Shown here piece after piece: positions 10,129 to 29,528 of a stretch of DNA of 32,000 nt. The first letter of the stretch is position 1; each line of letters opens with the position of its first letter. The stretch is taken from contig CAZNZM010000002.1 in assembly GCA_964577555.1 (NCBI GenBank), positions 63,012 to 95,011 on the forward strand. Reading direction: 5' to 3'. The notes under the pieces are model-generated. The model saw nothing but the letters and a program-made list of their open reading frames with translations. It ran no database searches and had not been told where the DNA came from. Position numbers and translations under genes: made by a program. This stretch comes from an uncultured archaeon. Lineage in GTDB: Archaea; Iainarchaeota; Iainarchaeia; Iainarchaeales; Iainarchaeaceae.

Positions 10129-10142
10129 TTTGGCATGCCAAA
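10129..10142. promoter_or_regulatory. Perfect 14-bp palindrome TTTGGCATGCCAAA; candidate operator upstream of the wHTH-led operon
   Basis: Read directly from the sequence. It lies 47 nt upstream of the ATG at 10189, next to AT-rich TATA-like sequence (ATTAAATAA). Confidence 0.3.
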
Positions 10143-10188
10143 CATTAAATAATTGTTTTTTATTATTTTGTGTTTTAATTTTAATTAA

Positions 10189-10527
10189 ATGGCAAAAAAA
10201 TCTGGGTATCCAGAATTGTCTGAGTTAGAATTGCGCATACTTGAAATAGTTAGGGAGCGTTGGCCGTCGTCTGCTTTGGAAATAGCTGAGAATTTAGGTG
10301 AAGATGTTTCCTCACATGAAAAACGAAAGCAACAATCAACCAAATATATTTATTATTTGAAAAAACTCGTTGAGAAAAGGCTGATTCTGTCAAAAAGAGC
10401 CGGCAATTTGTTATTGGTTTGGCCAATTGAAGCCGAAGCCTATAGGGCAATTCACCGCATAATTTCAGAAGCTGAAAAAAACGCAGTTGCATGTATTGAA
10501 AAAAAGGCAGGTTATAAAAATGCTTAA
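10189..10527 (+). CDS. Winged-helix DNA-binding protein (MarR/ArsR-like fold)
   Basis: 112 aa. LSELELRILEIVRERWPSSALEIAENLG followed by a wing-like LILSKRAGNLLLVWP. Confidence 0.55.
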   Translation: MAKKSGYPELSELELRILEIVRERWPSSALEIAENLGEDVSSHEKRKQQSTKYIYYLKKLVEKRLILSKRAGNLLLVWPIEAEAYRAIHRIISEAEKNAVACIEKKAGYKNA

Positions 10528-11089
10528 CTCGTTTTTGGATAAATACATATTTACAAATTCTTTTAGCTACAAACACAACAACTTTTATTTAGTAAACATT
10601 CCGCTTGTTATAATTCCGGTTACTACTTTGGTTGCAATAGCTGAACAAAACAACAAAGACCTTAATATTGAAGTTTATTATTCAATAAAAGAGTCAATAA
10701 TTTCTTTAATAAAAGAAAACATAATATTTGAATTTGGCACTAGCAATGAAAAAATTGTCGAATTCATGAATAATTTTTTTTCAGCTTGTGGTTGGGGGAA
10801 AATAGATATTATTGACCTTGATAAATTAAATACGCGTGCAATACTTTCAGTTACAAATTCTCCTGTAGCAAAATTGTGTAAAATATCAAAAAATCCTTGT
10901 GACACTTTTCTGAGAGGCTTTTTTGCAGCAATATTTTCAACATATTTCAAAAAAGATATTGATTGTGTGGAAATAAAATGTGCCTGTCTTGGTTCGCAAT
11001 CATGCGAGTTTATTATAAAACCTATTCAAGAATTCAATTTTGAAAATAATCTGACAAGAAATCAATTATTGTCTAAAAAAGATTTTTGA
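10520..11089 (+). CDS. V4R-domain (predicted hydrophobic small-molecule-binding) protein
   Basis: The C-terminus CDTFLRGFFAAIFSTYFKKDIDCVEIKCACLGSQSCEFIIKP fits the V4R cysteine pattern (E..C...G...C.F). The ATG at 10520 overlaps the upstream stop by 8 nt. The track start is 10487. Confidence 0.7.
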   Translation: MLNSFLDKYIFTNSFSYKHNNFYLVNIPLVIIPVTTLVAIAEQNNKDLNIEVYYSIKESIISLIKENIIFEFGTSNEKIVEFMNNFFSACGWGKIDIIDLDKLNTRAILSVTNSPVAKLCKISKNPCDTFLRGFFAAIFSTYFKKDIDCVEIKCACLGSQSCEFIIKPIQEFNFENNLTRNQLLSKKDF

Positions 11090-11100
11090 AATGTTTTATC

Positions 11101-11937
11101 ATGTTAATTAAATTCAAAAGATTCAGTCAATTACACAAAAAACTAGCAATTTTAATAACACCAGAACCTTTTAAATATGCCAAATACATGATATTTTTAA
11201 TGATTGAAAGATGTCCTACAGGTATAGAAGGTTTGGATAAGGCATTAAACGGCGGAATACCAAGAAACAATATTGTCCTAATTTCAGGCGGAGCAGGAAC
11301 CGGAAAAAGCACCCTTTGCCTTCAATTCTTAATTAACGGAGTAAAAATATTCAACGAAAAAAGCCTTTATATCTCAACAGAACAAAGCAAAAAAGAAATA
11401 TTCAAAACAGCAGAGAGCTTTGGCTGGGATTTGGCTTCACTCGAAGCCACTAACAAACTAAAAGTAGTTTACTTCGACATTGTCGAAACCGACGGCTTCT
11501 TAGAAAAAATGTATGAACTTTACACTTCTTTTATGCCAAAAAGAGTTGTCATAGACTCGTTAACAACACTAGCAGATTCTTTACTAATTTCCAATAAAGA
11601 AACAGACAAATCCTATTCGCTAGTTAAAATAGCAGATAGTGTCTCACCAATACCAAAAACAGAAAGGCTAGTTCAAAAAAGCCTGCTTTATCACTTGATG
11701 AAAAAACTCCGCCTCTTTGACTCAACAATCCTTCTAACTTCAGAATTACTTGAAGGACAAAACGGCCTCAGCGCCGACCAAATAAGCGAATTCGTATGTG
11801 ATGGAGTGATGGTTTTAAAATATTTAGCAATAGGCGAAACATTGAGTAGGACTATTGAAATAAAAAAAATGAGATACACTACTATTGAAGGCGGAATAAA
11901 ATCTTATGAATTTAGTGATAATGGAATAATACTTTGA
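11101..11937 (+). CDS. KaiC-like / RadA-like single-domain RecA-superfamily ATPase
   Basis: CPTGIEGLDKALNGGIPRNNIVLISGGAGTGKSTLCLQFL (Walker A), then RVVIDSLT (Walker B-like). Homology begins near the ATGs at 11188 and 11200, so the true start may be one of those. Confidence 0.85.
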   Translation: MLIKFKRFSQLHKKLAILITPEPFKYAKYMIFLMIERCPTGIEGLDKALNGGIPRNNIVLISGGAGTGKSTLCLQFLINGVKIFNEKSLYISTEQSKKEIFKTAESFGWDLASLEATNKLKVVYFDIVETDGFLEKMYELYTSFMPKRVVIDSLTTLADSLLISNKETDKSYSLVKIADSVSPIPKTERLVQKSLLYHLMKKLRLFDSTILLTSELLEGQNGLSADQISEFVCDGVMVLKYLAIGETLSRTIEIKKMRYTTIEGGIKSYEFSDNGIIL

Positions 11938-11959
11938 TTTTTATGCGAGGTTAATTTTT

Positions 11960-13108
11960 ATGGATATTAAAGATAATTTTGTTAGACTTTATGTAAAGAG
12001 ATTTGTAATTCCAAGAGCTTTGATTTTAGATGTTCCTGGTTTTGTTAATTTTAAAATTTCTGGAAAAACTTCAATTTTTGCAAGACAACTTTTAGTTCCT
12101 GAATCATTTTTTATTAATTTAGAAAAAGTTATTGTCGAAAAATTCGGTGAAAAAGGAAAATCGATTTTTTATTCTGTTGGAAAAAAATTCGGTTATAGTT
12201 TTGCACAATTAGGAAGATTTGAAAATATCTCAGATCATCCTGGCGATGCTGTTAAGGATTGGATTGTTATAGCTAGTAAATTTGTTGAAGGAACTTATGC
12301 TTCTGAAATAAGCCAAGTTATTGATGTGAAAAATAAAACAGTAGATTATACTCTAAAAAATTTTGTAATTTGTAGAAAGTTAGGTTACGATTTTTTTTTA
12401 GCTACTGGCGGTGCAGCAGGTGTCATTGCATGGTTATTTCAAGATAAAAACATAGAAGGGTATTATTATGATAATAAATTTTTGGAAGATGGCAACATTT
12501 GTAAAGTAAAATGTGCGCCATATAAAATATTAAAAAATTCATTTTCTGACAACGTATTTTCTGAAACTAATTTAGATGATCTTACTCATGATCCAATGAA
12601 TTACTTGAAGTTTAACGAAGAAAAGCCACTAAGATATAATAAATCTTTTAGTAATTATCTAGATGCAAAAATATTTTCTTATGAAAATGGTATTGTGAGT
12701 TATAATTATAATAAAGAAAGATTTTTTTTAATGGAAGTAAGTGGAATGTACTTACTTGAAAAAGAATTGAAAGCTAATGGTTTGAGTAATATACTTTTTG
12801 ATATAGCTTATGATGCTGGCAAGAATTTGTTTAGTGAATTTGGGCAAAAAGATGAAAAATCGTGTTTGGAATTAATGGCAGCATTAGGTTGGGGGGAGAT
12901 ATTGGTTTTACCACCTGTTAATAATAAATTAAATATTGTTGTAAATTATTTCCCTTGGACCAAATGGTATAATGAAATTAATTTTTCTATGTTGAGTGGT
13001 TTTTTAAGTGGAATGTTATCAAATATTAAAGGGTACAAAGTAAGATTAGAAAACCCAATTGTAGATATTAATAATAGTTATTTGGCTATTTTATATCGTG
13101 AAATTTGA
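11960..13108 (+). CDS. Protein with two V4R-like halves (tandem hydrocarbon-binding-like domains)
   Basis: 382 aa. The first half ends ...ATGGAAGVIAWLF...EDGNICKVKCAPY, which is V4R-like. The second half, ...DAGKNLF...LMAALGWGEILVL...LSGFLSGMLSNIKGYKV, repeats the pattern without the cysteines. GAGGT SD upstream. Confidence 0.5.
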   Translation: MDIKDNFVRLYVKRFVIPRALILDVPGFVNFKISGKTSIFARQLLVPESFFINLEKVIVEKFGEKGKSIFYSVGKKFGYSFAQLGRFENISDHPGDAVKDWIVIASKFVEGTYASEISQVIDVKNKTVDYTLKNFVICRKLGYDFFLATGGAAGVIAWLFQDKNIEGYYYDNKFLEDGNICKVKCAPYKILKNSFSDNVFSETNLDDLTHDPMNYLKFNEEKPLRYNKSFSNYLDAKIFSYENGIVSYNYNKERFFLMEVSGMYLLEKELKANGLSNILFDIAYDAGKNLFSEFGQKDEKSCLELMAALGWGEILVLPPVNNKLNIVVNYFPWTKWYNEINFSMLSGFLSGMLSNIKGYKVRLENPIVDINNSYLAILYREI

Positions 13109-13896
13109 TCATTATGAAGAAAATAGGCTATATTGAAAATTTTTTATATAAATTAAGATCTGAAGGGCCTTTAATTATACCTCAAATAGACCCTGATAAA
13201 TATTCCCCAGATAGCTCAAAAGATTGGTTTAAAAATGTTAAGAGTTTAGGCATTCCAATAATTGCTATTGGTGGAAGTATAGTTGACAGTTTTAATTTGC
13301 AAAATTTAATCGATATTGCTGTTAGAGATTATGAATTTTTAGTAATAACATATTTAACAACTAATTCTATTAGTTCATTGAAAGGTTATAAAGGAAAAAC
13401 TGCTGTGTATTGGATGCATGTTCCAACTTCTAATAATACTTTTTATAATTGGGATGGGTTAATTTCCAATTCTTTAAGTATTGAAAAGAATGAATTTGAA
13501 ACTTTGCCTACAATTTATGTTTTTGATGATCGTGGGTCTATTGCAACTTCTAATTGGATGACTAGGGCATATCCAATCCCACAAGACAAACCAAAAATAA
13601 GTTTAGCAGTAGCAAAAGCTGCTGAATTTTTAGGCATTAGATTTTATATTATGGCAGGTGGCTCAGGTTGTTTTAAACCACCCCCGTATAAACATGTTGA
13701 ATTGTTGAGTAAAAAAACTAGTTTATTTGTAATACCTACAAGTGGAATTAACACTTCTGATCAAGCTTATAAGTTATATAAATTTGGAGCTGATGCATTG
13801 CATATTGGAAATAGGTTGGAATTACCGGGCGGATTTAATATTTTAAAAAAAATAGTAAGGGTTTCAAAGAAATTTCCTGGAAAAGAATTTTTATGA
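13105..13896 (+). CDS. Divergent member of the GGGPS/PcrB (polyprenylglyceryl phosphate synthase) TIM-barrel family
   Basis: By-eye alignment to archaeal GGGPS: IPQIDPDK (..LDPD.), IIAIGGS, HVPTSNNTFYNWDG (LLNS.N..W..G), FYIMAGGSG (YLEAGSG), ADALHIGN (AD.IVVGN). An alternative ATG lies at 13114. Confidence 0.65.
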   Translation: MIIMKKIGYIENFLYKLRSEGPLIIPQIDPDKYSPDSSKDWFKNVKSLGIPIIAIGGSIVDSFNLQNLIDIAVRDYEFLVITYLTTNSISSLKGYKGKTAVYWMHVPTSNNTFYNWDGLISNSLSIEKNEFETLPTIYVFDDRGSIATSNWMTRAYPIPQDKPKISLAVAKAAEFLGIRFYIMAGGSGCFKPPPYKHVELLSKKTSLFVIPTSGINTSDQAYKLYKFGADALHIGNRLELPGGFNILKKIVRVSKKFPGKEFL

Positions 13897-14633
13897 ATAC
13901 TATTAATTATTCAAAATACAATGATTTTATTTTATTAAAAAATAATTTTAATTTGTCTAGTAAATTAGAAGATTTGGATTTTGCTATTTTTGATTTTGAT
14001 GGAACTTTATATCCTGGAATGATATTGCTTGATCTAATCGAATATACTTTTTCAGAAGATATTTACAAAATGTCTAGGTTGGAAAATATTAAAAGAGATT
14101 ATAAGAATGGTTTATTTGTAAAATCCTATAAAAATTTTTTAAATTTGCTAAAAGGCGAAGAGAAATGTAAAGTTTCAGAAAATGCAAATTTTCTTTTGAA
14201 TAAGTCTTATCCTAGTAGTAGAGAATTTGTTAGTAAGCTTAATGAAAAATATAATTTAAAATGTAAGTTGGTTTCTTTGACTGCTGATTTTATAGCTGAT
14301 TTAGTAAGGAAAAGATATGGTTTTATTGAAGCTTCAGCCATTAATTATTCAACTAAAATATGTTGGGGAAAAGAGTATTTTACTGGTTTAAGTAATGATA
14401 AAATTATTGAACCACAAAATCTTAAAAAAAAATTATTTTTAAAATTAAGTGATATAAAGAAATCATCAAAGTTTATCTATTTTTGTGATAGTTTAGATGA
14501 TTTAAAAATTTTAGAAGATGCATATATTAAAGTTGCTATTAACCCAAATAAGAAAATTTTAGAGTTAATTGAATTCGACTTAATCATTAACGATTTTAAG
14601 GATCCTTGGATTCATTTGAACGAAATGGTGTAA
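13893..14633 (+). CDS. HAD-superfamily hydrolase, subfamily IB (phosphoserine-phosphatase-like)
   Basis: Motif I is FDFDGTLYPG, motif II is VSLTAD, motif IV is FCDSLDDLKILEDA. The start overlaps the upstream stop (ATGA). Confidence 0.8.
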   Translation: MNTINYSKYNDFILLKNNFNLSSKLEDLDFAIFDFDGTLYPGMILLDLIEYTFSEDIYKMSRLENIKRDYKNGLFVKSYKNFLNLLKGEEKCKVSENANFLLNKSYPSSREFVSKLNEKYNLKCKLVSLTADFIADLVRKRYGFIEASAINYSTKICWGKEYFTGLSNDKIIEPQNLKKKLFLKLSDIKKSSKFIYFCDSLDDLKILEDAYIKVAINPNKKILELIEFDLIINDFKDPWIHLNEMV

Positions 14634-14634
14634 A

Positions 14635-15588
14635 TCACTGATATTTTTTAACAATTTCATATATTTTTTTTCTAAAATAATCTGCCATTTGTTCATTTTT
14701 TGTTATTCTAACTATAGCATTTATTTTTGGTTCTTCTTTAATGCCAAAATCTTTGAATAAATCTTCACTATTTTTCCATTTTAAATAATAATTTTGAAAA
14801 AATTTTTTAGTTTCGTTATCAAACTTTACTTCTATTATATAATTACCTTGTATAAAAATGTCTTCTTCAATTTCAAATTTTGTACCTGTTGGCGGGGAAA
14901 TTCCACCAGATCTAATATATTGTTTTCTAATCCATTCACCAAAAGTGGTTTTTTTTCTAATTATTGCAATGGGCTTATAGTTAGTTAATGCCATTTTTCC
15001 TAATAATTCTAAATGTTCAAATCTAAACTTTATTATCCACCAACCATATTCCATTATACACACAAAACTTTTATCTTCAGAATTTCTTGCTAATTGTCTT
15101 GAAAATAAAAGTTTTGCCACAGAAACTGCTAAATCTGTCATTGAATTATATTCTAATTCTATTAAACCAAATTCTGAATTTTCAGATATTTTTATTTTTT
15201 CGTTTTCAAGGTATTTTTTTTCTAATTCTGTCATTAGGCGTTTAGAATTCTGTATCCATTCTATATTCAATTTATAAGTGTTAACATTCTTTACAATGAT
15301 ATTTTCTATTGTTAATTCTTTTATTATTTTATGAACTGCTTGATATGTAATATTTGTTTTGAATTCTTTTTGAAGACGGTTATATATTTTTTTAGCTGTA
15401 AGAGGCCATTCATCTGTTAATATTATTATTATTTTTTGTTTTGTTGAAGTATTTTCTGGGGCTACCTTTAATATTTGTAATTCATTTATCATATTCTTAT
15501 TTACTTTTTCATACAAAAATATTAAAATTGGTTTTTTTTGTGTTTTGCCTGGATTGCCTATTTGTTTTAATTCATTTTTTATTTTCAT
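14635..15588 (-). CDS. Winged-helix protein with a large uncharacterised C-terminal domain
   Basis: 317 aa. The N-terminal KIIIILTDEWPLTAKKIYNRLQKEFKTNITYQAVHKIIKELTIENII is wHTH-like. The remainder is unrecognised. Convergent with the HAD gene, leaving only a 1-nt gap. Confidence 0.5.
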   Translation of the reverse strand: MKIKNELKQIGNPGKTQKKPILIFLYEKVNKNMINELQILKVAPENTSTKQKIIIILTDEWPLTAKKIYNRLQKEFKTNITYQAVHKIIKELTIENIIVKNVNTYKLNIEWIQNSKRLMTELEKKYLENEKIKISENSEFGLIELEYNSMTDLAVSVAKLLFSRQLARNSEDKSFVCIMEYGWWIIKFRFEHLELLGKMALTNYKPIAIIRKKTTFGEWIRKQYIRSGGISPPTGTKFEIEEDIFIQGNYIIEVKFDNETKKFFQNYYLKWKNSEDLFKDFGIKEEPKINAIVRITKNEQMADYFRKKIYEIVKKYQ

Positions 15589-16898: not shown

Positions 16899-17525
16899 TT
16901 ATTTTGTTATTACTCTGGCATCGACTGCTATTATTTCGTTTTCGTTTCCTATGATTGGGTTTAGGTCTAGTTCTATTATTTCTGTTTCGTTTTCCATTAT
17001 TTTTCCGACTGATAGGATGGTTTCTTCGAGTTCTTTTATGTTAACCCCTTTTTTTCCTCTGGCTCCGCTTAGTATTGGGTATGTTTTGAGGGATTGTATC
17101 ATTTCTTTTGCTTGGTTTTTTGTTAGGGGGCATATTCCTATGCTTATGTCGTTGAGTATTTCAGCATATATTCCTCCGAGTCCTACTATTACTGTTGGTC
17201 CGAATTGTATATCTCTTTTTCCTCCGACTAGTATTTCTGTTCCTTTGAGCATTTGTTGTACTATGACACATTCGAAACCGTCTATTTTTTTCATTTTTTT
17301 GAATGTTTCTGTTGCTTCTTTTATGGAGTTTATGCCTATTTTTACTCCGCCTGCTTCGGTTTTATGGGTTATTTTTTTTGAAACTACTTTCATTGCAATT
17401 GGCATTCCTATGTTTTTGCATGCTTTTTTTATTTGGTTTTCGTTTTTTGCTTCTTGCATTTTGGCTGTTTTAATTCCGTATTTTTTGATTATTTCGAATG
17501 ATTTTGTAAGGTTGAGTGTTTCCAT
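16899..17525 (-). CDS. ATP-grasp protein resembling the beta subunit of ADP-forming acetyl-CoA synthetase
   Basis: 208 aa starting from METLNLTKSFEIIKKYGIKTAK... Contains MPIAMKVVSKKITHKTEAGGVKIG, GPTVIVGLGGIYAEIL and LDLNPII. Only the 3' third of the 502-aa track ORF is credible. Confidence 0.8.
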   Translation of the reverse strand: METLNLTKSFEIIKKYGIKTAKMQEAKNENQIKKACKNIGMPIAMKVVSKKITHKTEAGGVKIGINSIKEATETFKKMKKIDGFECVIVQQMLKGTEILVGGKRDIQFGPTVIVGLGGIYAEILNDISIGICPLTKNQAKEMIQSLKTYPILSGARGKKGVNIKELEETILSVGKIMENETEIIELDLNPIIGNENEIIAVDARVITK

Positions 17526-17585
17526 AAATAAATGGTAACCAAAATACCTATTTAAATATGTTGCAATTTTATTTTGTTGATTTTG

Positions 17586-18851
17586 ATGGTTAAAATAACT
17601 TTTAAAGGAGCTTCGCAAGAGGTTGGGCGGAGTGCTTTTTTGGTTGATGCTGGCGATAAAATTTTGTTGGATTATGGTGTGAAGCTTACTCCTGCCGGAA
17701 CTGAGTATCCTTTGCCGGTAGAAACAAATTTGAATGCTGCAATAATTTCTCATGCTCATCTTGATCATACTGGGAATTTGCCGCATTTGTTTCAGGAAAC
17801 TAATTGTCTTGTTTATATGACTCCTCCTACGCTTGATATTGCTAAGATTTTGTGGTTTGATACTTTGAAGATTGCGGGTTTGGAGGGGATGGATGCGAAG
17901 TTTGCTAAAGATGAGATTTCGAAAACTGAAAAATTTACTTTTCCTGTGATGTATGGTAAGTCCATGGATATTACGGAAAATACTTCTATGCGAATGTTTG
18001 ATGCGGGTCATATTGTAGGTTCTGCAATAACTGAGTTGAGGTTGAAGGAAAAAACGATTGTTTATACTGGGGATTTTAGGTATACTGAGACAAGGTTGCA
18101 TAATCCTGCACAATTTGAAAAAATAAAAGAGTGTGATTATTTGATAACTGAGTCGACTTATGGAGATAGGGATCATCCGGATAGAAAAGAGACTGAAAAG
18201 TTGTTTGTTGAGTCTGTTAGGGGTGTTATTGAACGTGGTGGGCATGTTCTTTTGCCGTCGTTTGCAGTTGGGCGAAGTCAGGAGATAATAGATGTGCTTT
18301 ATGAATATAAGATAGGTGCGCCGATATATTATGATGGTATGGGGCAAAGCGTGGCGAAAATATATTTGAATAATCCTGGTTATTTGAAAGATCCAAAGTT
18401 TTTGCAAAGGGCTCTTGAAAAAGTGAATTGGGTTAAAAATGTTAAAATGAGAAAGCGTGCTTTAAAGGAGCCTTCGATAATTGTTTGTACTAGTGGTATG
18501 ATGCAGGGTGGGAGTGTTTATGCTTATCTTCCGGAGGTTTATAATGATAAATCGTCAAAAATAATGCTTACTGGTTATCAGGTTGCAGATACTCCTGGGA
18601 AAATACTTTTGGAAACCGGTAAAATAAATTTGGAAGGTATAAATGTTACTGTTAAAGCTGGTGTGGAGCATTATGATTTTAGTGCGCATGCTGGGAAATC
18701 TGAATTGTTTAAGGCTATTAACAAGCTTAATCCTGAAAAAGTGGTTTGTGTGCATGGGGATGCGGAAGTTACTAAAAAGTTTGCCAAGAGCATAAAAGAG
18801 GGAGGTTTTACTCCTGTTGTTCCGGAGTTTGGAAAGGTAATTGAGTTATGA
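17586..18851 (+). CDS. Metallo-beta-lactamase / beta-CASP ribonuclease (aCPSF2-like, no KH domains)
   Basis: GRSAFLVDAG, ISHAHLDHTGNLPHL (HxHxDH), GHIVGSA, TESTYG and VCVHGD. About 420 aa. Confidence 0.85.
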   Translation: MVKITFKGASQEVGRSAFLVDAGDKILLDYGVKLTPAGTEYPLPVETNLNAAIISHAHLDHTGNLPHLFQETNCLVYMTPPTLDIAKILWFDTLKIAGLEGMDAKFAKDEISKTEKFTFPVMYGKSMDITENTSMRMFDAGHIVGSAITELRLKEKTIVYTGDFRYTETRLHNPAQFEKIKECDYLITESTYGDRDHPDRKETEKLFVESVRGVIERGGHVLLPSFAVGRSQEIIDVLYEYKIGAPIYYDGMGQSVAKIYLNNPGYLKDPKFLQRALEKVNWVKNVKMRKRALKEPSIIVCTSGMMQGGSVYAYLPEVYNDKSSKIMLTGYQVADTPGKILLETGKINLEGINVTVKAGVEHYDFSAHAGKSELFKAINKLNPEKVVCVHGDAEVTKKFAKSIKEGGFTPVVPEFGKVIEL

Positions 18852-19612
18852 GTGGTTTTGTATCTTCTTTGAAATATTCTTTGGAAATATTTTCTTCAGA
18901 ACCAAAGCTGATAATTCCGAAGTTGGTGATTGTTGGGATTTTTACTATTATAATGGTTGCGACTACACATTATTATGTATTGGCAATTGAAACTAATGAT
19001 ATTGCTATTGTGTTGGTTCTTTTAATTCTTTTTTTGTTTACTTTGTTGGCTAATGTTTTGGATATATTGGTAAGTGCCATGTATCCTTATCTTGTTGATG
19101 ATTTCAAAAAGAATAAGAAAGTGAGTTTGATAGAGGCGTTGGAGAAATCCATGAAAATTTTCTTTAAAATAGTGGTTCCTGTTATGGCGATTGAATTGGC
19201 TTTTATTGTGGTGACTTCTATCTTTGCGATTGTTTTGATGTTTATATTGCCTGGTGAATTTTTTGATTTAGTTTCTGCCGCGTTTTATTTTTTGGTTGTA
19301 ATTGTGTTTGTGTTTGTTTTTTATAATATTTATTCGGTTATTGCTTTTGAGAAGCATTCTGTTGTTGATTCGATAAAACGAACTGTAAGTATTTCAATAA
19401 AAAATAAGTCTGTAATTTCAAAGGCGACGCTATTAACGACTTTTCTTTCTTTGATTTCTTTTGTATTGGCTTATTATTTGGAAGTTTCAAATATTAGTGG
19501 GGAAATAATGTTTTGGATTGCTTTTGTGATTATTAGGGTTATTACGGCTTATGTTTATTCCTACATATATATTCTTAATCCTGTAATTTATTTTCAGTTG
19601 TTTCGCAAGTGA
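18848..19612 (+). CDS. Polytopic membrane protein, unknown function
   Basis: 254 aa with about 6 hydrophobic helices. Start and stop overlap both neighbours by 4 nt each, suggesting translational coupling. Confidence 0.55.
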   Translation: MSGFVSSLKYSLEIFSSEPKLIIPKLVIVGIFTIIMVATTHYYVLAIETNDIAIVLVLLILFLFTLLANVLDILVSAMYPYLVDDFKKNKKVSLIEALEKSMKIFFKIVVPVMAIELAFIVVTSIFAIVLMFILPGEFFDLVSAAFYFLVVIVFVFVFYNIYSVIAFEKHSVVDSIKRTVSISIKNKSVISKATLLTTFLSLISFVLAYYLEVSNISGEIMFWIAFVIIRVITAYVYSYIYILNPVIYFQLFRK

Positions 19613-22957: not shown

Positions 22958-23785
22958 TTATTTTGCACCTTTTTTTGCCACTTTTGCAATCATAATTTTT
23001 TTACAGTATTTTTTTAATTTTTTTATTTCGTTTTTTGGGTTGTTTGTTATTATAAAAATTGTTTCTCCAAGCATTGCCATGCTTGCTTTATCTATTTTAC
23101 TTATTGTTTTTTTTATTTTTGGGGTTGCAAGTCCTGTTTCTAATGTGAATTTTCTTGCCAATCTCATGAAATTTGCCGGGGTTTTTTCTTTTTCAATTTC
23201 TTTCATGCATTTTAGTCCTATTTTGTTTATTTTTTTTTTCCATTTTTTGCTTCTTATTATTGTTTTTGTTTTTATTGGGTTGAAGAATCCTAATACTACA
23301 TATTTTTCTTTTGGTTTTATTATCCATGCTTTTTTTGATGGGTATGGTTTTTTGCCTATTAGCAGTCCATAGAATTGTTCAGCTGTTACGTCTCCCAATC
23401 CTGTTCCGCATTCTATTTCTGCTTGGCTTGCTATTTTTGCCACTTCGCTTTTTTTTAGTTTTGTTTTTAGTGCTTTGTTTAGTGCTAGTGCCAAGCTTAA
23501 TGCTCCTGCGCCTGAAATTCCTAGTCCATAGCCTATTGGGAATTTTGTTTTGTGTTCTATTTTTACTTTTTTTTTGCATTTTGTTTTCTTTCTGAATAGT
23601 TCCAGAACTTTTTTTGATACTGGTAGGTTTGTTTTTTTGTCGTTTATTGTGAATGAGTCTTTTTTTGCTGTTGTGACTTTTGTTTTCATTCCTTCTGCAA
23701 TGTTTATGCTTGCGCCTGTTGATCCGTTTTTGAATATTGCGAAAAACCCTGTAATGCTTCCAGGGCTTTGTGCGGTTGCTTTCAT
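22958..23785 (-). CDS. GHMP-family kinase, probably archaeal pantoate kinase (COG1829-like)
   Basis: The N-terminus SPGSITGFF resembles the archaeal pantoate kinase N-terminal motif as I recall it (unverified). The GHMP ATP motif is FPIGYGLGISGAGALSLALALN. Confidence 0.55.
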   Translation of the reverse strand: MKATAQSPGSITGFFAIFKNGSTGASINIAEGMKTKVTTAKKDSFTINDKKTNLPVSKKVLELFRKKTKCKKKVKIEHKTKFPIGYGLGISGAGALSLALALNKALKTKLKKSEVAKIASQAEIECGTGLGDVTAEQFYGLLIGKKPYPSKKAWIIKPKEKYVVLGFFNPIKTKTIIRSKKWKKKINKIGLKCMKEIEKEKTPANFMRLARKFTLETGLATPKIKKTISKIDKASMAMLGETIFIITNNPKNEIKKLKKYCKKIMIAKVAKKGAK

Positions 23786-26090: not shown

Positions 26091-27239
26091 TCATTCTTCA
26101 AAATTTTCTTTATTTTTTTCTGCTTCTTTTGTTTTTTTGTTGAATATTTCTTTTATTTTTTGGTGCCTTTGTATTGTCTTTGCAATGAGTTTGGCTTGGT
26201 GCATGTTTTCTTCCATTTCAGTTATCTTTTTTTCCCTTTGCAAAATCGCTTCTTGCAAATTTTTGATGTGTTCAGATTTTTCTTTTAGCTCTTTTTTTAG
26301 TCTGTCTATTTCCGTTTTGTATTTGTTTTCAAGTTCGTTTTTGTAGGATAGTTTTTCTTCTTGCAGGTTTAGCAGTTCTTTTGAGTATGTTCCTCTTAGT
26401 TGGAGTGTTTCTTGTTCTATTTCTAAAAGAACTTTTTTTGCGTAGTCTCTTTCTTTTTTTAGCATTGTTATGAGTTCGAATGTTTTGGCAGTTAATTGGC
26501 TTTGAATTTCGTCTATTTCAGCCATTTCTGAGTTGAGCTCTATTGTTTTTTGTTCTAATTGTTCGAATGCTGTTTTTGCATTTTCAATGGTTTTTTTTGC
26601 GGCTGATGTTTTTCCTTCAATTTTTCTTGAAAGTTCGTTTAATTGTTGTTCTAATTCTATTGAATTTTCTTTTTGTATTATCCCCATGAATGTGTTTTTT
26701 CTTATTTCGTCGTATTTTTTTCTCAATTCTTGTATTTCTTCTTCTCTTTTTTCAAGTATTTCAAGCATGTTTCTTTGTACTGCTTTTGTTTGCATTATTG
26801 GTTCTTTTTTTCTTTCAATTATTCTAAGTTTGTCTAATAGGTATGCGCTTTTTAGCAGTATTGCGAGTGTTTTTTGTTCTAAATCAGAGTATAGTTCAGG
26901 CGTTGCTATAGAGTCAGCTATTCCTTCTATTCCTTGTTTTTTGATTTTGTTCATTCTTGCTTCTTCCATTTCCTTGTTTCTTTGAAGTATTGTAATTAAT
27001 TTTGATATTTCTTCAATGTGTTTTGTTATGTCTGGTAAACCTTCTGTTTTTTTTTCTTTGGCAATATTTTCAATTTGTTTGAAGAGGTTTTTTATTTCTT
27101 CAAGTCCTGGGATTATTGTGCTTGCATTGTATATGAATCCTCCTCTGGAAAATTCCGCCCAATGTCTTGCTGTTGTTTTTCGCCTTAAATCTGTTGCTTT
27201 TTCTTCTATTTTTTCGCATATTTCAAATATTTCAACCAT
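26091..27239 (-). CDS. Long coiled-coil protein, unknown function
   Basis: 382 aa. E/K/Q/L-rich heptad-like sequence covers about 300 aa, after a short non-coiled N-terminus (ARHWAEFSRGGFIYNASTIIPG). Confidence 0.6.
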   Translation of the reverse strand: MVEIFEICEKIEEKATDLRRKTTARHWAEFSRGGFIYNASTIIPGLEEIKNLFKQIENIAKEKKTEGLPDITKHIEEISKLITILQRNKEMEEARMNKIKKQGIEGIADSIATPELYSDLEQKTLAILLKSAYLLDKLRIIERKKEPIMQTKAVQRNMLEILEKREEEIQELRKKYDEIRKNTFMGIIQKENSIELEQQLNELSRKIEGKTSAAKKTIENAKTAFEQLEQKTIELNSEMAEIDEIQSQLTAKTFELITMLKKERDYAKKVLLEIEQETLQLRGTYSKELLNLQEEKLSYKNELENKYKTEIDRLKKELKEKSEHIKNLQEAILQREKKITEMEENMHQAKLIAKTIQRHQKIKEIFNKKTKEAEKNKENFEE

Positions 27240-27387
27240 GCTAATATGATGCTTTAGAAGTTTAAATAATTGTTTTTGTTTGTTCTTTTGTGAAATTATT
27301 GTCTCAAATAAATAATTGTTTTTGTTGAGTTTTATTTTATTTCAAAACCGTAATTGTTTAATATATCATGGTATATATAATCAAAAC

Positions 27388-28899
27388 ATGTATGATAAAT
27401 ATGATGAACCTTATTCAAATCAGCCGCAACCTCCTCTTAATGATGGTTCTGGTGAAAGCCAAGAATTGATATCAGGCATATTGGATAAGGCAAAGCAATA
27501 TTGGTGGATTGTGTTATTGGTTTTTGTTGTTGTTTTTTTTGGTTATTTTTTATATGATTTTTTTGTAGGGAGTTTCAAGGAAGTGACTATCATAGCAATT
27601 GATACAGAGGGCAAGACGGTCTCTGCATCATTCAGGATATTGGATGAATCAGGCAATGAAATCAAAACAATAGATTCTGGGCAGAAAACGAGCCTAAAAA
27701 AAGGGGTTTATTATATAGATGGTGTTGCTTCTGGTTTCAAGGGAGTAGAGCAGGAACAAATAGAAGTGGAAAATGAAAGTTCTTTAAAAGTGGTTTTTGA
27801 AAAAGATTTTGATGTTAGAATTGACGGGGTTTTTCCGCAATCTTTTATAACTGGGGAAGAGAAAAAGATTCCTGTGACTTTTACTAATAATGGAAGTGAA
27901 TCAGTTGAAGTTGTGTTGTTGCTTGAAGGTGATGCAAAGAAGTCAATGGATTTGCAAACAAAATCATTTTTGGTATACTCTGGCACCCAGCAGGAAACAA
28001 TAGTTGTTAAAGTTAAAACCAATCCTGAAAATTCCGCGGTTGGTGAGAACAAAAATGGTGTGATTAGGATACAAGGACTTGGAAATTCAAGTGCAAAAAT
28101 AGAGGGAAAGTATTCTCTTTCAAAGTTTGATCCTGTTAAAGATATTGAAATTAGAATAGATGGTTACGATAAAGAGGTAAAGTATCAGAACATAAGGGCT
28201 GGCGAGGATGCGCCTGTAAAAAGTTTGAGGATACAAAACAAGTCCAATTTTGAAATTCAGCATATTCAAATAATTCTTGATATAACTGAAACGGAATTTT
28301 CTGAAAAGGAAAGCGTGAAAAATTGGTTTTCATTTAATCCTTCGAATGTTTTAAGTATTCCGCCAAAATCTGTGGAAAGTGTTAATATATTGCTTAAAGT
28401 GCCTGAACAAATTAAGTTTCCTGATGGGAAGTCTGATGAATTGGTTTCTGGCGTAATAATTGTAAAAATGTCTTTTTATGAAAAAAAATTCAATTTGAAT
28501 TTTAAGGTGGTTAAATCTGAGGCAAAAATATCTGTCAGCGGAATTCAGGAAACTTACATAATGAATAAAACTAATGGTGTTTATGTGCCAAAAACAGGTT
28601 TTATTGATATAAAAAATACTGGTGATTTGTTGTTGGATGATTTTGATTTGAGGATTGATTGTCCAGGTTCTGTTGGCATTAGTTGGCTTACCGTGAGTAA
28701 TCAAAAAACCGAGTATAGTTTTGAAAGGCTTGGAAAGGGTGAAACTCATAAAGTTCCGTATTCAATATCAGTGCCTAATTCTACTCCAGGCCTTACAACG
28801 GTTGATTGTACTTTAGGAGTGTTTTATAAAGATCCTAGTGGAACAACGAGGAAAAGCGAAGTTAAAACTATTATAACTACTGCAATGGAGAGGAATTAG
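27388..28899 (+). CDS. Type II membrane-anchored protein with repeated beta-rich (CARDB/Ig-like) extracellular domains
   Basis: Short P/Q-rich N-terminus, one TM helix (YWWIVLLVFVVVFFGYFLYDFFV), then about 430 aa of alternating beta-strand-like sequence with recurring V.F.N.G motifs. The track start is 27316. Confidence 0.55.
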   Translation: MYDKYDEPYSNQPQPPLNDGSGESQELISGILDKAKQYWWIVLLVFVVVFFGYFLYDFFVGSFKEVTIIAIDTEGKTVSASFRILDESGNEIKTIDSGQKTSLKKGVYYIDGVASGFKGVEQEQIEVENESSLKVVFEKDFDVRIDGVFPQSFITGEEKKIPVTFTNNGSESVEVVLLLEGDAKKSMDLQTKSFLVYSGTQQETIVVKVKTNPENSAVGENKNGVIRIQGLGNSSAKIEGKYSLSKFDPVKDIEIRIDGYDKEVKYQNIRAGEDAPVKSLRIQNKSNFEIQHIQIILDITETEFSEKESVKNWFSFNPSNVLSIPPKSVESVNILLKVPEQIKFPDGKSDELVSGVIIVKMSFYEKKFNLNFKVVKSEAKISVSGIQETYIMNKTNGVYVPKTGFIDIKNTGDLLLDDFDLRIDCPGSVGISWLTVSNQKTEYSFERLGKGETHKVPYSISVPNSTPGLTTVDCTLGVFYKDPSGTTRKSEVKTIITTAMERN

Positions 28900-29438: not shown

Positions 29439-29528
29439 AGCCACCGATGGGATTCGAACCCATGGCCTGCCGCTAATTCTGATTTTTTTTCATACGAAGC
29501 GGCTGCACTACCACTGTGCTACGGTGGC
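29439..29528 (-). tRNA. tRNA-Thr (anticodon CGU) with an 18-nt intron at the canonical 37/38 position
   Basis: Minus strand: GCCACCG TA GCAC AGTGGTA GTGC A GCCGC TTCGTA [TGAAAAAAAATCAGAATT] A GCGGC AGGCC ATGGG TTCGAAT CCCAT CGGTGGC T. All four stems are Watson-Crick. G1-C72/C2-G71 and U73 fit tRNA-Thr. Confidence 0.85.

Follow-up and report, generated by a model that had tools for sequence, protein, structure and literature searches.

A KaiC-like ATPase and a tandem V4R protein encoded beside isoprenoid prenyltransferases in archaea

In a stretch of 32,000 nucleotides from an uncultured archaeon of the Iainarchaeaceae (contig CAZNZM010000002.1, positions 63,012 to 95,011 of the forward strand; hereafter the window, with position 1 at its first letter), a gene for a KaiC-like ATPase is followed by genes for a protein with two V4R domains (2xV4R), for a divergent prenyltransferase of the geranylgeranylglyceryl phosphate synthase (GGGPS)/PcrB fold and for a HAD-type phosphatase. 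By the depositors' labels, the pair of KaiC and 2xV4R is conserved across seven archaeal lineages or more, and it almost always lies beside a gene for an isoprenoid prenyltransferase. The window itself has a low GC content (about 0.3), belongs to an archaeal contig and is identical in sequence to metagenome contigs of JGI and Logan.

The system consists of a KaiC-like ATPase plus a putative sensor partner and has two unusual features, namely its consistent coupling to prenyltransferases of two different folds and the presence of a GGGPS clade without the catalytic Glu. The KaiC/2xV4R pair suggests that the synthesis of archaeal lipids includes a step of control or handling that has not been described so far. 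To our knowledge, the regulation of archaeal ether-lipid synthesis and the channelling of its hydrophobic intermediates, from the soluble GGGPS to membrane enzymes of the UbiA type, are largely unknown. The KaiC/2xV4R module, which tracks two unrelated prenyltransferase folds in seven labelled lineages, is a concrete candidate for this missing layer. Full-text searches, by which the 2017 survey of KaiC proteins was not covered, gave no description that links KaiC or V4R to GGGPS, prenyltransferases or isoprenoids; that survey may list a KaiC-V4R combination. The papers on V4R that were found discuss general sensing of hydrophobic ligands and the link with Bet3 only.

Conservation of the neighbourhood

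The census was made with one genome per GTDB species and gave 76 loci, which carry the depositors' labels Micrarchaeota, Iainarchaeum, Altiarchaeota, Aenigmatarchaeota, Nanohalarchaeota, Thermoplasmatota, Marsarchaeota and Methanobacteriota. Counts refer to the 43 species-level loci that have at least 1.5 kb on both sides, with neighbours taken within 3.5 kb; the labels of this set are Micrarchaeota, Iainarchaeota, Altiarchaeota, Aenigmatarchaeota, Marsarchaeota, Thermoplasmatota and Methanobacteriota. The loci were annotated with home-built hidden Markov models derived from Pfam-assigned seed proteins, and a sample was re-checked against NCBIfam.

A KaiC gene is found near the 2xV4R gene in 41 of the 43 loci; it abuts the latter in 34 of them and is located directly upstream on the same strand in 32. 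A prenyltransferase gene is equally present in 41 loci, of the PcrB type in 11 and of the UbiA type in 30. Homologues of geranylgeranyl reductase (GGR) occur in 13 loci, methyltransferases in 8 and HAD genes in 10, the last only alongside PcrB, so that HAD accompanies PcrB in 10 of the 11 PcrB-type loci and is present in none of the UbiA-type loci. When metagenome loci are anchored on PcrB and upstream sequence is available, 19 of 20 have the 2xV4R gene as the immediate upstream neighbour of PcrB. Canonical GGGPS genes of other archaea are found in ordinary contexts, without KaiC or V4R.

Two patterns can be distinguished. In the first, the order is KaiC, 2xV4R, PcrB, an optional GGR, and HAD, in metagenome-assembled genomes (MAGs) labelled Iainarchaeum, Diapherotrites or only 'archaeon'. 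In the second, which is seen in more distant lineages, KaiC and 2xV4R lie by UbiA-family prenyltransferases, a methyltransferase or a polyprenyl synthase. A geranylgeranyl diphosphate (GGPP) synthase gene adjoins the pair in a few loci. Spot checks with NCBIfam recognized a geranylgeranyl reductase (TIGR02032, 183.9 bits for a cutoff of 158.8) and an IdsA/GGPPS-like synthase, and confirmed that the sampled UbiA-type neighbours belong to the UbiA superfamily, all of them being divergent and below the cutoffs. A preliminary description of this DNA, made from the sequence alone, had named absence of the gene combination from all related genomes as the outcome that would make the adjacency fortuitous; KaiC, 2xV4R, PcrB and HAD are in fact found together in many relatives. 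The link with enzymes of prenyl-lipid synthesis is even wider than proposed there, including UbiA, GGR and GGPP synthase genes in other archaeal phyla.

Some individual loci deserve mention. A metagenome locus of the PcrB type has a UbiA-like gene (L089:2990-3934, minus strand) convergent with and right after HAD, and this gene connects the two versions of the cluster, that with PcrB and that with UbiA. One MAG contig (L037:1-8619) shows a local expansion of KaiC/V4R pairs: about 8 kb contain five genes for single-V4R proteins, three for KaiC, one for 2xV4R and one each for UbiA and GGR. Several Thermoplasmatota-labelled MAGs contain two paralogous 2xV4R loci on different contigs (L046/L072, L058/L075, L053/L084 and L063/L069) and, where the flanks permit, KaiC and/or UbiA plus GGR genes are their neighbours. 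These paired loci hint at specialised roles rather than a single housekeeping role. Finally, a UbiA-2xV4R-KaiC locus is adjoined by a gene (L007:2814-5951, minus strand) for a 1045-aa T2SSE/PilB-like ATPase with an intein and a LAGLIDADG domain.

The tandem V4R protein

The 2xV4R protein of the window (382 aa, 11960-13108, plus strand) has no match in Pfam and none in NCBIfam, and is labelled 'predicted hydrocarbon binding protein' by JGI. Its AlphaFold2 (AF2) model, built from 57 homologues, is of high confidence (pLDDT 90.3, pTM 0.90) except for an N-terminal helix (residues 3-20) of low confidence, and shows an alpha/beta fold of the V4R/Bet3/H-NOX type with the same order of secondary-structure elements in both halves. 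The best matches in the PDB come from the phenol sensors MopR, PoxR and DmpR, whose sensor domains are in the ligand-bound state (Foldseek E about 2e-4, target-normalized TM score, TMt, 0.5-0.6 per half), followed by the V4R protein MJ1460 (2osd), YslB, H-NOX domains and Bet3/TRAPP subunits. In profile-profile comparisons with hhalign, the family of single-V4R proteins to which gene 2 of the window belongs (see below) is matched by the N-terminal half with a probability of 95.1% (E 3.4e-8) and by the C-terminal half with 97.2% (E 3.3e-11), while a direct comparison of the two halves of the family is not significant (E 0.07). The modelled structure and these profile matches agree, and the protein is best described as a tandem of two sensor modules, each made up of an XylR_N-like part and a V4R domain. 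The tandem-V4R call of the preliminary description is thereby upheld, and with it the V4R assignments as a whole, gene 2 being recognized by the Pfam profile itself.

A search of 1.84 billion representative proteins with a threshold of E<=1e-30 yielded 184 representatives of the 2xV4R family. Among the best 150 of these, complete proteins measure about 345-390 aa, the longest not exceeding 391 aa, and fusions are absent; this fixed length without fusions fits a dedicated partner protein. The family, for which Pfam and NCBIfam have had no model so far, can now be named and serve as a marker.

V4R domains bind hydrophobic ligands and have Bet3 as eukaryotic homologue (PMC2253512), and three conserved Cys have been noted for them (PMC5847659). 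A system reminiscent of the one described here is that of the sensors of the NtrC-family activators DmpR, XylR, MopR and PoxR, in which XylR_N plus V4R gates an AAA+ ATPase. These sensors give the best structural matches, MopR also has a weak profile similarity to the 382-aa protein, and both systems combine a sensor for hydrophobic ligands with a P-loop ATPase. However, the sensor is duplicated here and forms a polypeptide of its own, the ATPase is of the RecA/KaiC type instead of the AAA+/sigma54 type, a DNA-binding domain is lacking, and the genomic partner is a prenyltransferase instead of aromatic-catabolism genes. Furthermore, the Cys cluster that makes up the Zn site of MopR and PoxR is not conserved in the 382-aa family, whereas gene 2 encodes a Cys-rich C-terminus. 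The palmitate-binding Bet3/TRAPP subunits share the fold family (6aq3, 2bjn and 2cfh are among the matches) and a published homology with V4R (PMC2253512), and 6aq3 was deposited with a covalent palmitoyl group. Here the similarity is at the level of the fold only (TMt about 0.4-0.55, 8-17% identity), and there is no TRAPP context.

The KaiC-like ATPase

The third gene (11188-11937, plus strand; alternative starts at 11086, 11101 and 11200) encodes a protein that matches PF06745 with 174 bits. Its Walker A motif GGAGTGKST, the Walker B residue D157 and the residues E235, K261 and R263 are conserved in 17 orthologues, and because of this conservation the protein is probably an active ATPase. 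It is a single-domain protein of about 245-250 aa, in contrast to the circadian double-domain proteins of about 500 aa, and scores 123.9 bits with the double-domain model PRK09302, far below the cutoff of 408. The KaiC, ArlH and FlaH models of NCBIfam all remain below their own cutoffs.

A role as hubs of signal transduction has been proposed for archaeal KaiC-like ATPases, including ArlH (Makarova, Galperin & Koonin 2017, cited in PMC5847659). The protein described here has in common with them the single-domain KaiC family, the intact Walker motifs and a gene located beside that of a small-molecule-binding partner. What sets it apart is the association with V4R proteins and lipid genes, of which no mention was found in the searchable literature, the 2017 survey lying outside it.

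A prenyltransferase clade without the catalytic Glu, and its phosphatase

Gene 5 (260 aa, 13114-13896, plus strand; alternative start at 13105) belongs to the GGGPS/PcrB family, as the preliminary description had stated. It scores 38.6 bits with PF01884, above the gathering threshold (GA) of 23.9, and its AF2 model (pLDDT 92.8) is a modified TIM barrel with TM scores of 0.84-0.91 and 20-25% identity to 4mm1, 5ndy, 6jo3 and 6nke. A profile of the clade aligns with MtGGGPS (4mm1) over 243 residues with an E value of 1.7e-33, and the nearest solved relatives are group II enzymes: MtGGGPS, TaGGGPS, TvGGGPS and FjGGGPS. Nevertheless, the protein remains below all GGGPS cutoffs of NCBIfam (NF003198, 115.2 bits versus 247; TIGR01769, 75.2 versus 161.6; TIGR01768, 64.4 versus 113.3). 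A profile search that scored 8000 candidates separates the clade, with at least 208 bits, from all other GGGPS proteins, with at most 130 bits. Besides the clade, only four distant proteins were returned, of which P0191 and P0193 occur in unrelated assemblies and in ordinary contexts.

A Tyr/Tyr/Glu triad has been described as strictly conserved in GGGPS groups I and II, and its Glu could polarise the C3 hydroxyl group of glycerol-1-phosphate (G1P; PMC9385802). In gene 5 Tyr135, the counterpart of the first Tyr, is retained. The motif RLFYLEAGSG is replaced by RFYIMAGGSG across 85 members of the clade, none of which has an acidic residue in this motif; the position of the Glu is taken by Ala181 or, if shifted by one residue, by Met180 (three independent alignments). 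The essential Asp by which Mg2+ and diphosphate are coordinated (D13 in the Af enzyme, D25 in the Mt enzyme) has its aligned counterpart in D26, which does not vary within the clade, and the GGS motif is also kept. On the other hand, GGGI has become PTSGI, FPGN has been lost, and YVFD[DE]R, YW and H194 are new invariant elements. Compared with the group IIa enzymes MtGGGPS (4mm1) and TaGGGPS (6jo3), the clade shares the barrel, the Asp, the GGS motif and one conserved Tyr, but differs in all of the changes listed, including the replacement of the Glu of Y-x-E, and in its nearly constant position directly downstream of 2xV4R (19 of 20 loci). The gene 5 product is, judged from its residues, a GGGPS-fold prenyltransferase with a non-canonical predicted acceptor site, and a plain housekeeping role is made less likely by the lack of the conserved catalytic Glu. 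With about 85 sequence clusters, the clade forms a coherent group of the GGGPS fold that breaks the strict-Glu rule of the family. This bears on how G1P specificity, and hence the 'lipid divide', is defined, and affects the scoring of lipid autonomy in DPANN archaea from annotation alone.

The sixth gene (246 aa, 13893-14633, plus strand) encodes a HAD-type phosphatase. The score with PF12710 is marginal (27.7 bits for a GA of 27), but seven of eight orthologues tested reach 31-54 bits, the eighth having no match. Motif I, DFDGT, lies at residues 33-37 and has the form DxDGT in 16 of 16 orthologues; motif IV, [GF][DN][ST]xxD, is present, with its Asp found in most orthologues. The HAD assignment of the preliminary description is borne out by these scores and motifs. 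Its placement in subfamily IB is tentative, with 32.7 bits for TIGR01488 (HAD-SF-IB) against a cutoff of 45. A search of the PDB with the HAD sequence gave nothing useful.

The combination is reminiscent of the Bacillus pathway in which the product of PcrB is dephosphorylated and then acetylated by YvoF to acetyl-heptaprenylglycerol (PMC12345273). Dephosphorylation of the product of a PcrB-family enzyme would be the shared element, and here the HAD gene is translationally coupled to PcrB. However, the Bacillus enzyme is a group Ib member in which the conserved G1P pocket is intact (PMC9385802), its phosphatase is non-specific and not encoded beside pcrB, Bacillus has no KaiC or V4R partner, and neither a YvoF-like acetyltransferase nor other Bacillus downstream genes are found here.

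Gene organization in the window

Six co-directional open reading frames (ORFs) are present between 10189 and 14633 in the order that the preliminary description had given: winged helix-turn-helix (wHTH), V4R, KaiC, tandem V4R, PcrB and HAD. For the genes with a Pfam match, NCBIfam is in accord as to the family, while all of its equivalog models score far under their cutoffs. Of the coupled junctions that it had reported, four out of five hold on reading the sequence. The ATG of gene 2 at 10520 overlaps the stop codon of gene 1 (10525-10527; the two genes share 8 nt), a 22-nt spacer with a Shine-Dalgarno-like GAGGT separates KaiC from the 2xV4R start at 11960, and an ATGA overlap (13893-13896) joins PcrB and HAD. 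The stop codon of 2xV4R (13106-13108) lies by two possible PcrB starts, a TTG at 13105 (4-nt overlap) and an ATG at 13114 (5-nt gap); the latter is the more likely because of the N-terminal consensus MxxIGxVEK of the clade and the JGI gene call at 13114.

The fifth junction, between V4R and KaiC (11086-11101 versus 11089), is probably wrong. The longest ORF starts at 11086 and the JGI gene call at 11101, but the orthologues favour 11188-11200: the N-termini of 16 of them begin about 5 residues ahead of the motif ERxKTGIxGLD, and the likely KaiC start is therefore ATG 11188 or 11200. The overlap is thus probably an artefact of an over-extended ORF. The V4R stop at 11089 and the revised start are separated by about 100 nt of AT-rich sequence. 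A TTTAAATA box in this gap, located about 27 nt before 11200, could plausibly be part of an internal archaeal promoter for a leaderless KaiC transcript. The result of a sigma-70 promoter scan was set aside, as this model is not applicable to archaea.

A single operon of six genes, as had been proposed, is not what the relatives point to. In L003/L014, L008 and L016 the wHTH plus V4R pair is a separate conserved two-gene unit at 5-7 kb from the cluster. There are probably two adjacent units, wHTH plus V4R (10189-11089) and a KaiC-2xV4R-PcrB-HAD operon (about 11190-14633), and in the window the former reads as a unit that has merely come to abut the latter.

The two-gene unit seems to encode a regulator. 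The 112-aa product of gene 1 (10189-10527, plus strand) has sub-threshold Pfam matches, over residues 10-73, to three wHTH families (Penicillinase_R with E 0.007, HTH_27 and HVO_A0114). The earlier wHTH call, for which these matches are the evidence, is retained as that of a probable winged-helix DNA-binding protein. The 189-aa product of gene 2 (10520-11089, plus strand) has an XylR_N-like N-terminal part, a V4R domain (PF02830, 46.7 bits for a GA of 31) and the Cys-rich C-terminus mentioned above. A wHTH-like gene lies directly upstream of the single-V4R gene in L003/L014, L008 and L016 as well. Together, the two genes resemble a split version of the ligand- or redox-responsive regulator MsvR, an archaeal redox-responsive protein with wHTH and V4R domains. 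The points of resemblance are the match of the V4R region of gene 2 to the NCBIfam MsvR model, the Cys-rich C-terminus and the upstream wHTH-like gene with overlapping stop and start. Unlike MsvR, which has both domains on one polypeptide, the regulator would be encoded by two genes, the score of gene 2 is far under the MsvR cutoff (35.1 bits versus 220, for the V4R part only), and the organism is not a methanogen.

The perfect palindrome that the preliminary description had noted upstream is the 14-nt sequence TTTGGCATGCCAAA (10129-10142), from which gene 1 is about 47 nt away. It has one exact copy in the window and imperfect 21-nt arms with 81% complementarity. No counterpart was seen upstream of the homologous genes at the other loci compared. 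It is a candidate operator for the wHTH protein. In another locus, on a 788-kb contig, an HVO_A0114-type wHTH gene (L005:6810-7172, plus strand) is found directly upstream of KaiC; the presence of a small wHTH gene ahead of the operon is thus a recurring feature, also where the single-V4R gene is missing. Of the two wHTH genes that had been placed on the opposite strand directly downstream of HAD, one codes for a 317-aa protein (14635-15588) with only sub-threshold, spurious-looking matches (Pox_E2-like, NAL1_N), and the other for a 121-aa protein with weak HTH-like matches only.

Possible function and alternative explanations

On the basis of the domain families, we infer a ligand-sensing, ATPase-controlled module. 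In the reading that we favour, and to which we would give an even chance, a complex of KaiC and 2xV4R senses the supply of isoprenoid lipids and controls or assists prenyl transfer. The two hydrophobic V4R pockets of the 2xV4R protein would accommodate a prenyl lipid, for instance GGPP, the prenylglyceryl-phosphate product or a diether, and the protein would form a complex with the KaiC-like ATPase. Occupancy by the ligand would gate the ATPase, as an in-trans analogue of the gating of the AAA+ domain by XylR_N plus V4R in DmpR, XylR and MopR, and the complex would respond to isoprenoid supply by acting on the prenyl-transfer step. The transferase would in this lineage be the PcrB-clade enzyme with its non-canonical acceptor site, and the coupled HAD enzyme would probably dephosphorylate its product or a later intermediate. 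Support comes from the domain identities, the intact ATPase and HAD motifs and the near-obligate linkage of KaiC, 2xV4R and prenyltransferase.

Several points weigh against the sensing reading, in which both the interaction of KaiC with 2xV4R and the nature of the ligand are presumed. In an alignment of 57 sequences, the 2xV4R family has no invariant or near-invariant Cys and no obvious phosphate-binding signature. A transcription factor gene is not adjacent in most loci, which leaves the output of the sensor undefined, and the conserved adjacency is also compatible with 2xV4R being purely a carrier or chaperone, or with simple co-regulation. The UbiA genes beside the pair are divergent and far under the equivalog cutoffs for digeranylgeranylglyceryl phosphate synthase (DGGGPS). 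Because of these divergent genes and of the two clusters in several Thermoplasmatota MAGs, the product may not be bulk membrane lipid but some specialised prenylated compound.

It could also be imagined that 2xV4R is a carrier or chaperone, which ferries prenyl lipids from the soluble PcrB step to membrane enzymes or the membrane, one chain per pocket, with KaiC powering loading or release. There is room for a long acyl chain within the V4R/Bet3 fold (6aq3; PMC2253512), the two V4R modules always occur together in a protein of fixed length, and the same neighbourhood counts apply. As most loci have no transcription factor, a mechanical role would fit better than signalling. Nevertheless, the V4R proteins known so far act as sensors or regulators, a search for membrane-targeting elements in 2xV4R identified none, where the helix 3-20 is of low confidence, and we know of no precedent for a KaiC/RecA-type ATPase as a lipid extractor. 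On balance the carrier is improbable. A specialised pathway, in which PcrB and HAD lead to a dephosphorylated prenylglycerol or a minor lipid while a separate canonical GGGPS is encoded elsewhere in the genome, seems doubtful, albeit with several points in its favour. By pathway logic, a phosphatase coupled to PcrB would destroy the geranylgeranylglyceryl phosphate that DGGGPS needs; the clade lacks the triad Glu described as strictly conserved (PMC9385802) and is set off from other GGGPS by a large score gap; Bacillus offers a precedent with PcrB, phosphatase and YvoF leading to the carrier lipid Ac-HepG (acetyl-heptaprenylglycerol; PMC12345273); and in the tested Thermoplasmatota-labelled loci GGR and UbiA are far under the canonical cutoffs (56 versus 780 bits for the DGGGP-lipid reductase). 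Such a pathway is harder to reconcile with a GGR gene inside the operon of many relatives, as expected for membrane-lipid saturation, and with the lack of an acetyltransferase or other tailoring enzyme in the operon. Moreover, HAD could act on a later head-group phosphate, and no second PcrB is present on the contigs examined, which at 20 kb or less per genome is weak evidence.

Quite unlikely, in our judgement, is a housekeeping role, with PcrB as the normal, fast-evolving GGGPS of the lineage, KaiC/2xV4R as a generic co-transcribed regulator and HAD as an unrelated enzyme. Divergence is general among DPANN proteins, PcrB has kept the fold as well as D26, the GGS motif and Tyr135, and mevalonate genes and a free-living capacity are reported for Iainarchaeota (PMC10936187). 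Yet the pair tracks two unrelated prenyltransferase folds, PcrB and UbiA, across phyla, which would be unexpected for a generic regulator; HAD accompanies PcrB in 10 of 11 loci and overlaps it with its start in the window, the catalytic Glu is lost, and canonical GGGPS genes elsewhere in archaea have no KaiC or V4R neighbours. A fortuitous adjacency of unrelated genes has practically no probability left: compact DPANN genomes are tightly packed, with overlapping stops and starts being common throughout the window, but the frequencies of KaiC (41/43), of a prenyltransferase (41/43) and of 2xV4R directly upstream of PcrB (19/20) effectively refute it.

A more daring reading appears rather improbable at present: KaiC plus 2xV4R would be a widespread and so far unrecognised archaeal machine dedicated to the synthesis or trafficking of isoprenoid ether lipids, holding prenyl chains in the V4R pockets and driving with ATP their hand-over from soluble to membrane prenyltransferases, while in Iainarchaeota-like DPANN archaea the Glu-less PcrB and HAD would make a non-canonical lipid of the prenyl-glycerol type, with another acceptor or stereochemistry. 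The preliminary description had found the module notable for a small-genome archaeon, from a group often assumed to rely on host lipids. Such a framing is weak. The nearest relatives carry the label Iainarchaeota or Micrarchaeota, and Iainarchaeota MAGs are reported to contain mevalonate-pathway genes, the phylum being said to have the anabolic capacity for a free-living lifestyle (PMC10936187).

Other features of the window

A GHMP kinase gene (22958-23785, minus strand) was considered as evidence for a mevalonate pathway and dropped, its best match being archaeal pantoate kinase (133.9 bits for a cutoff of 380); there is therefore no other isoprenoid gene in the window. No credible Pfam or NCBIfam match was obtained for the 317-aa ORF at 14635-15588 (minus strand) and for those at 26091-27239 (minus strand, 382 aa), 27316-28899 (plus strand, 527 aa) and 18848-19612 (plus strand, 254 aa). 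The 502-aa ORF at 16899-18407 (minus strand) is an over-extension of a real gene at 16899-17525, which encodes a 208-aa ATP-grasp_5 protein resembling the beta part of ADP-forming acetate-CoA ligase. Finally, a 90-nt tRNA is recognized by Rfam at 29439-29528 (minus strand, 61.7 bits) but not reported by ARAGORN, and is probably an intron-containing archaeal tRNA.

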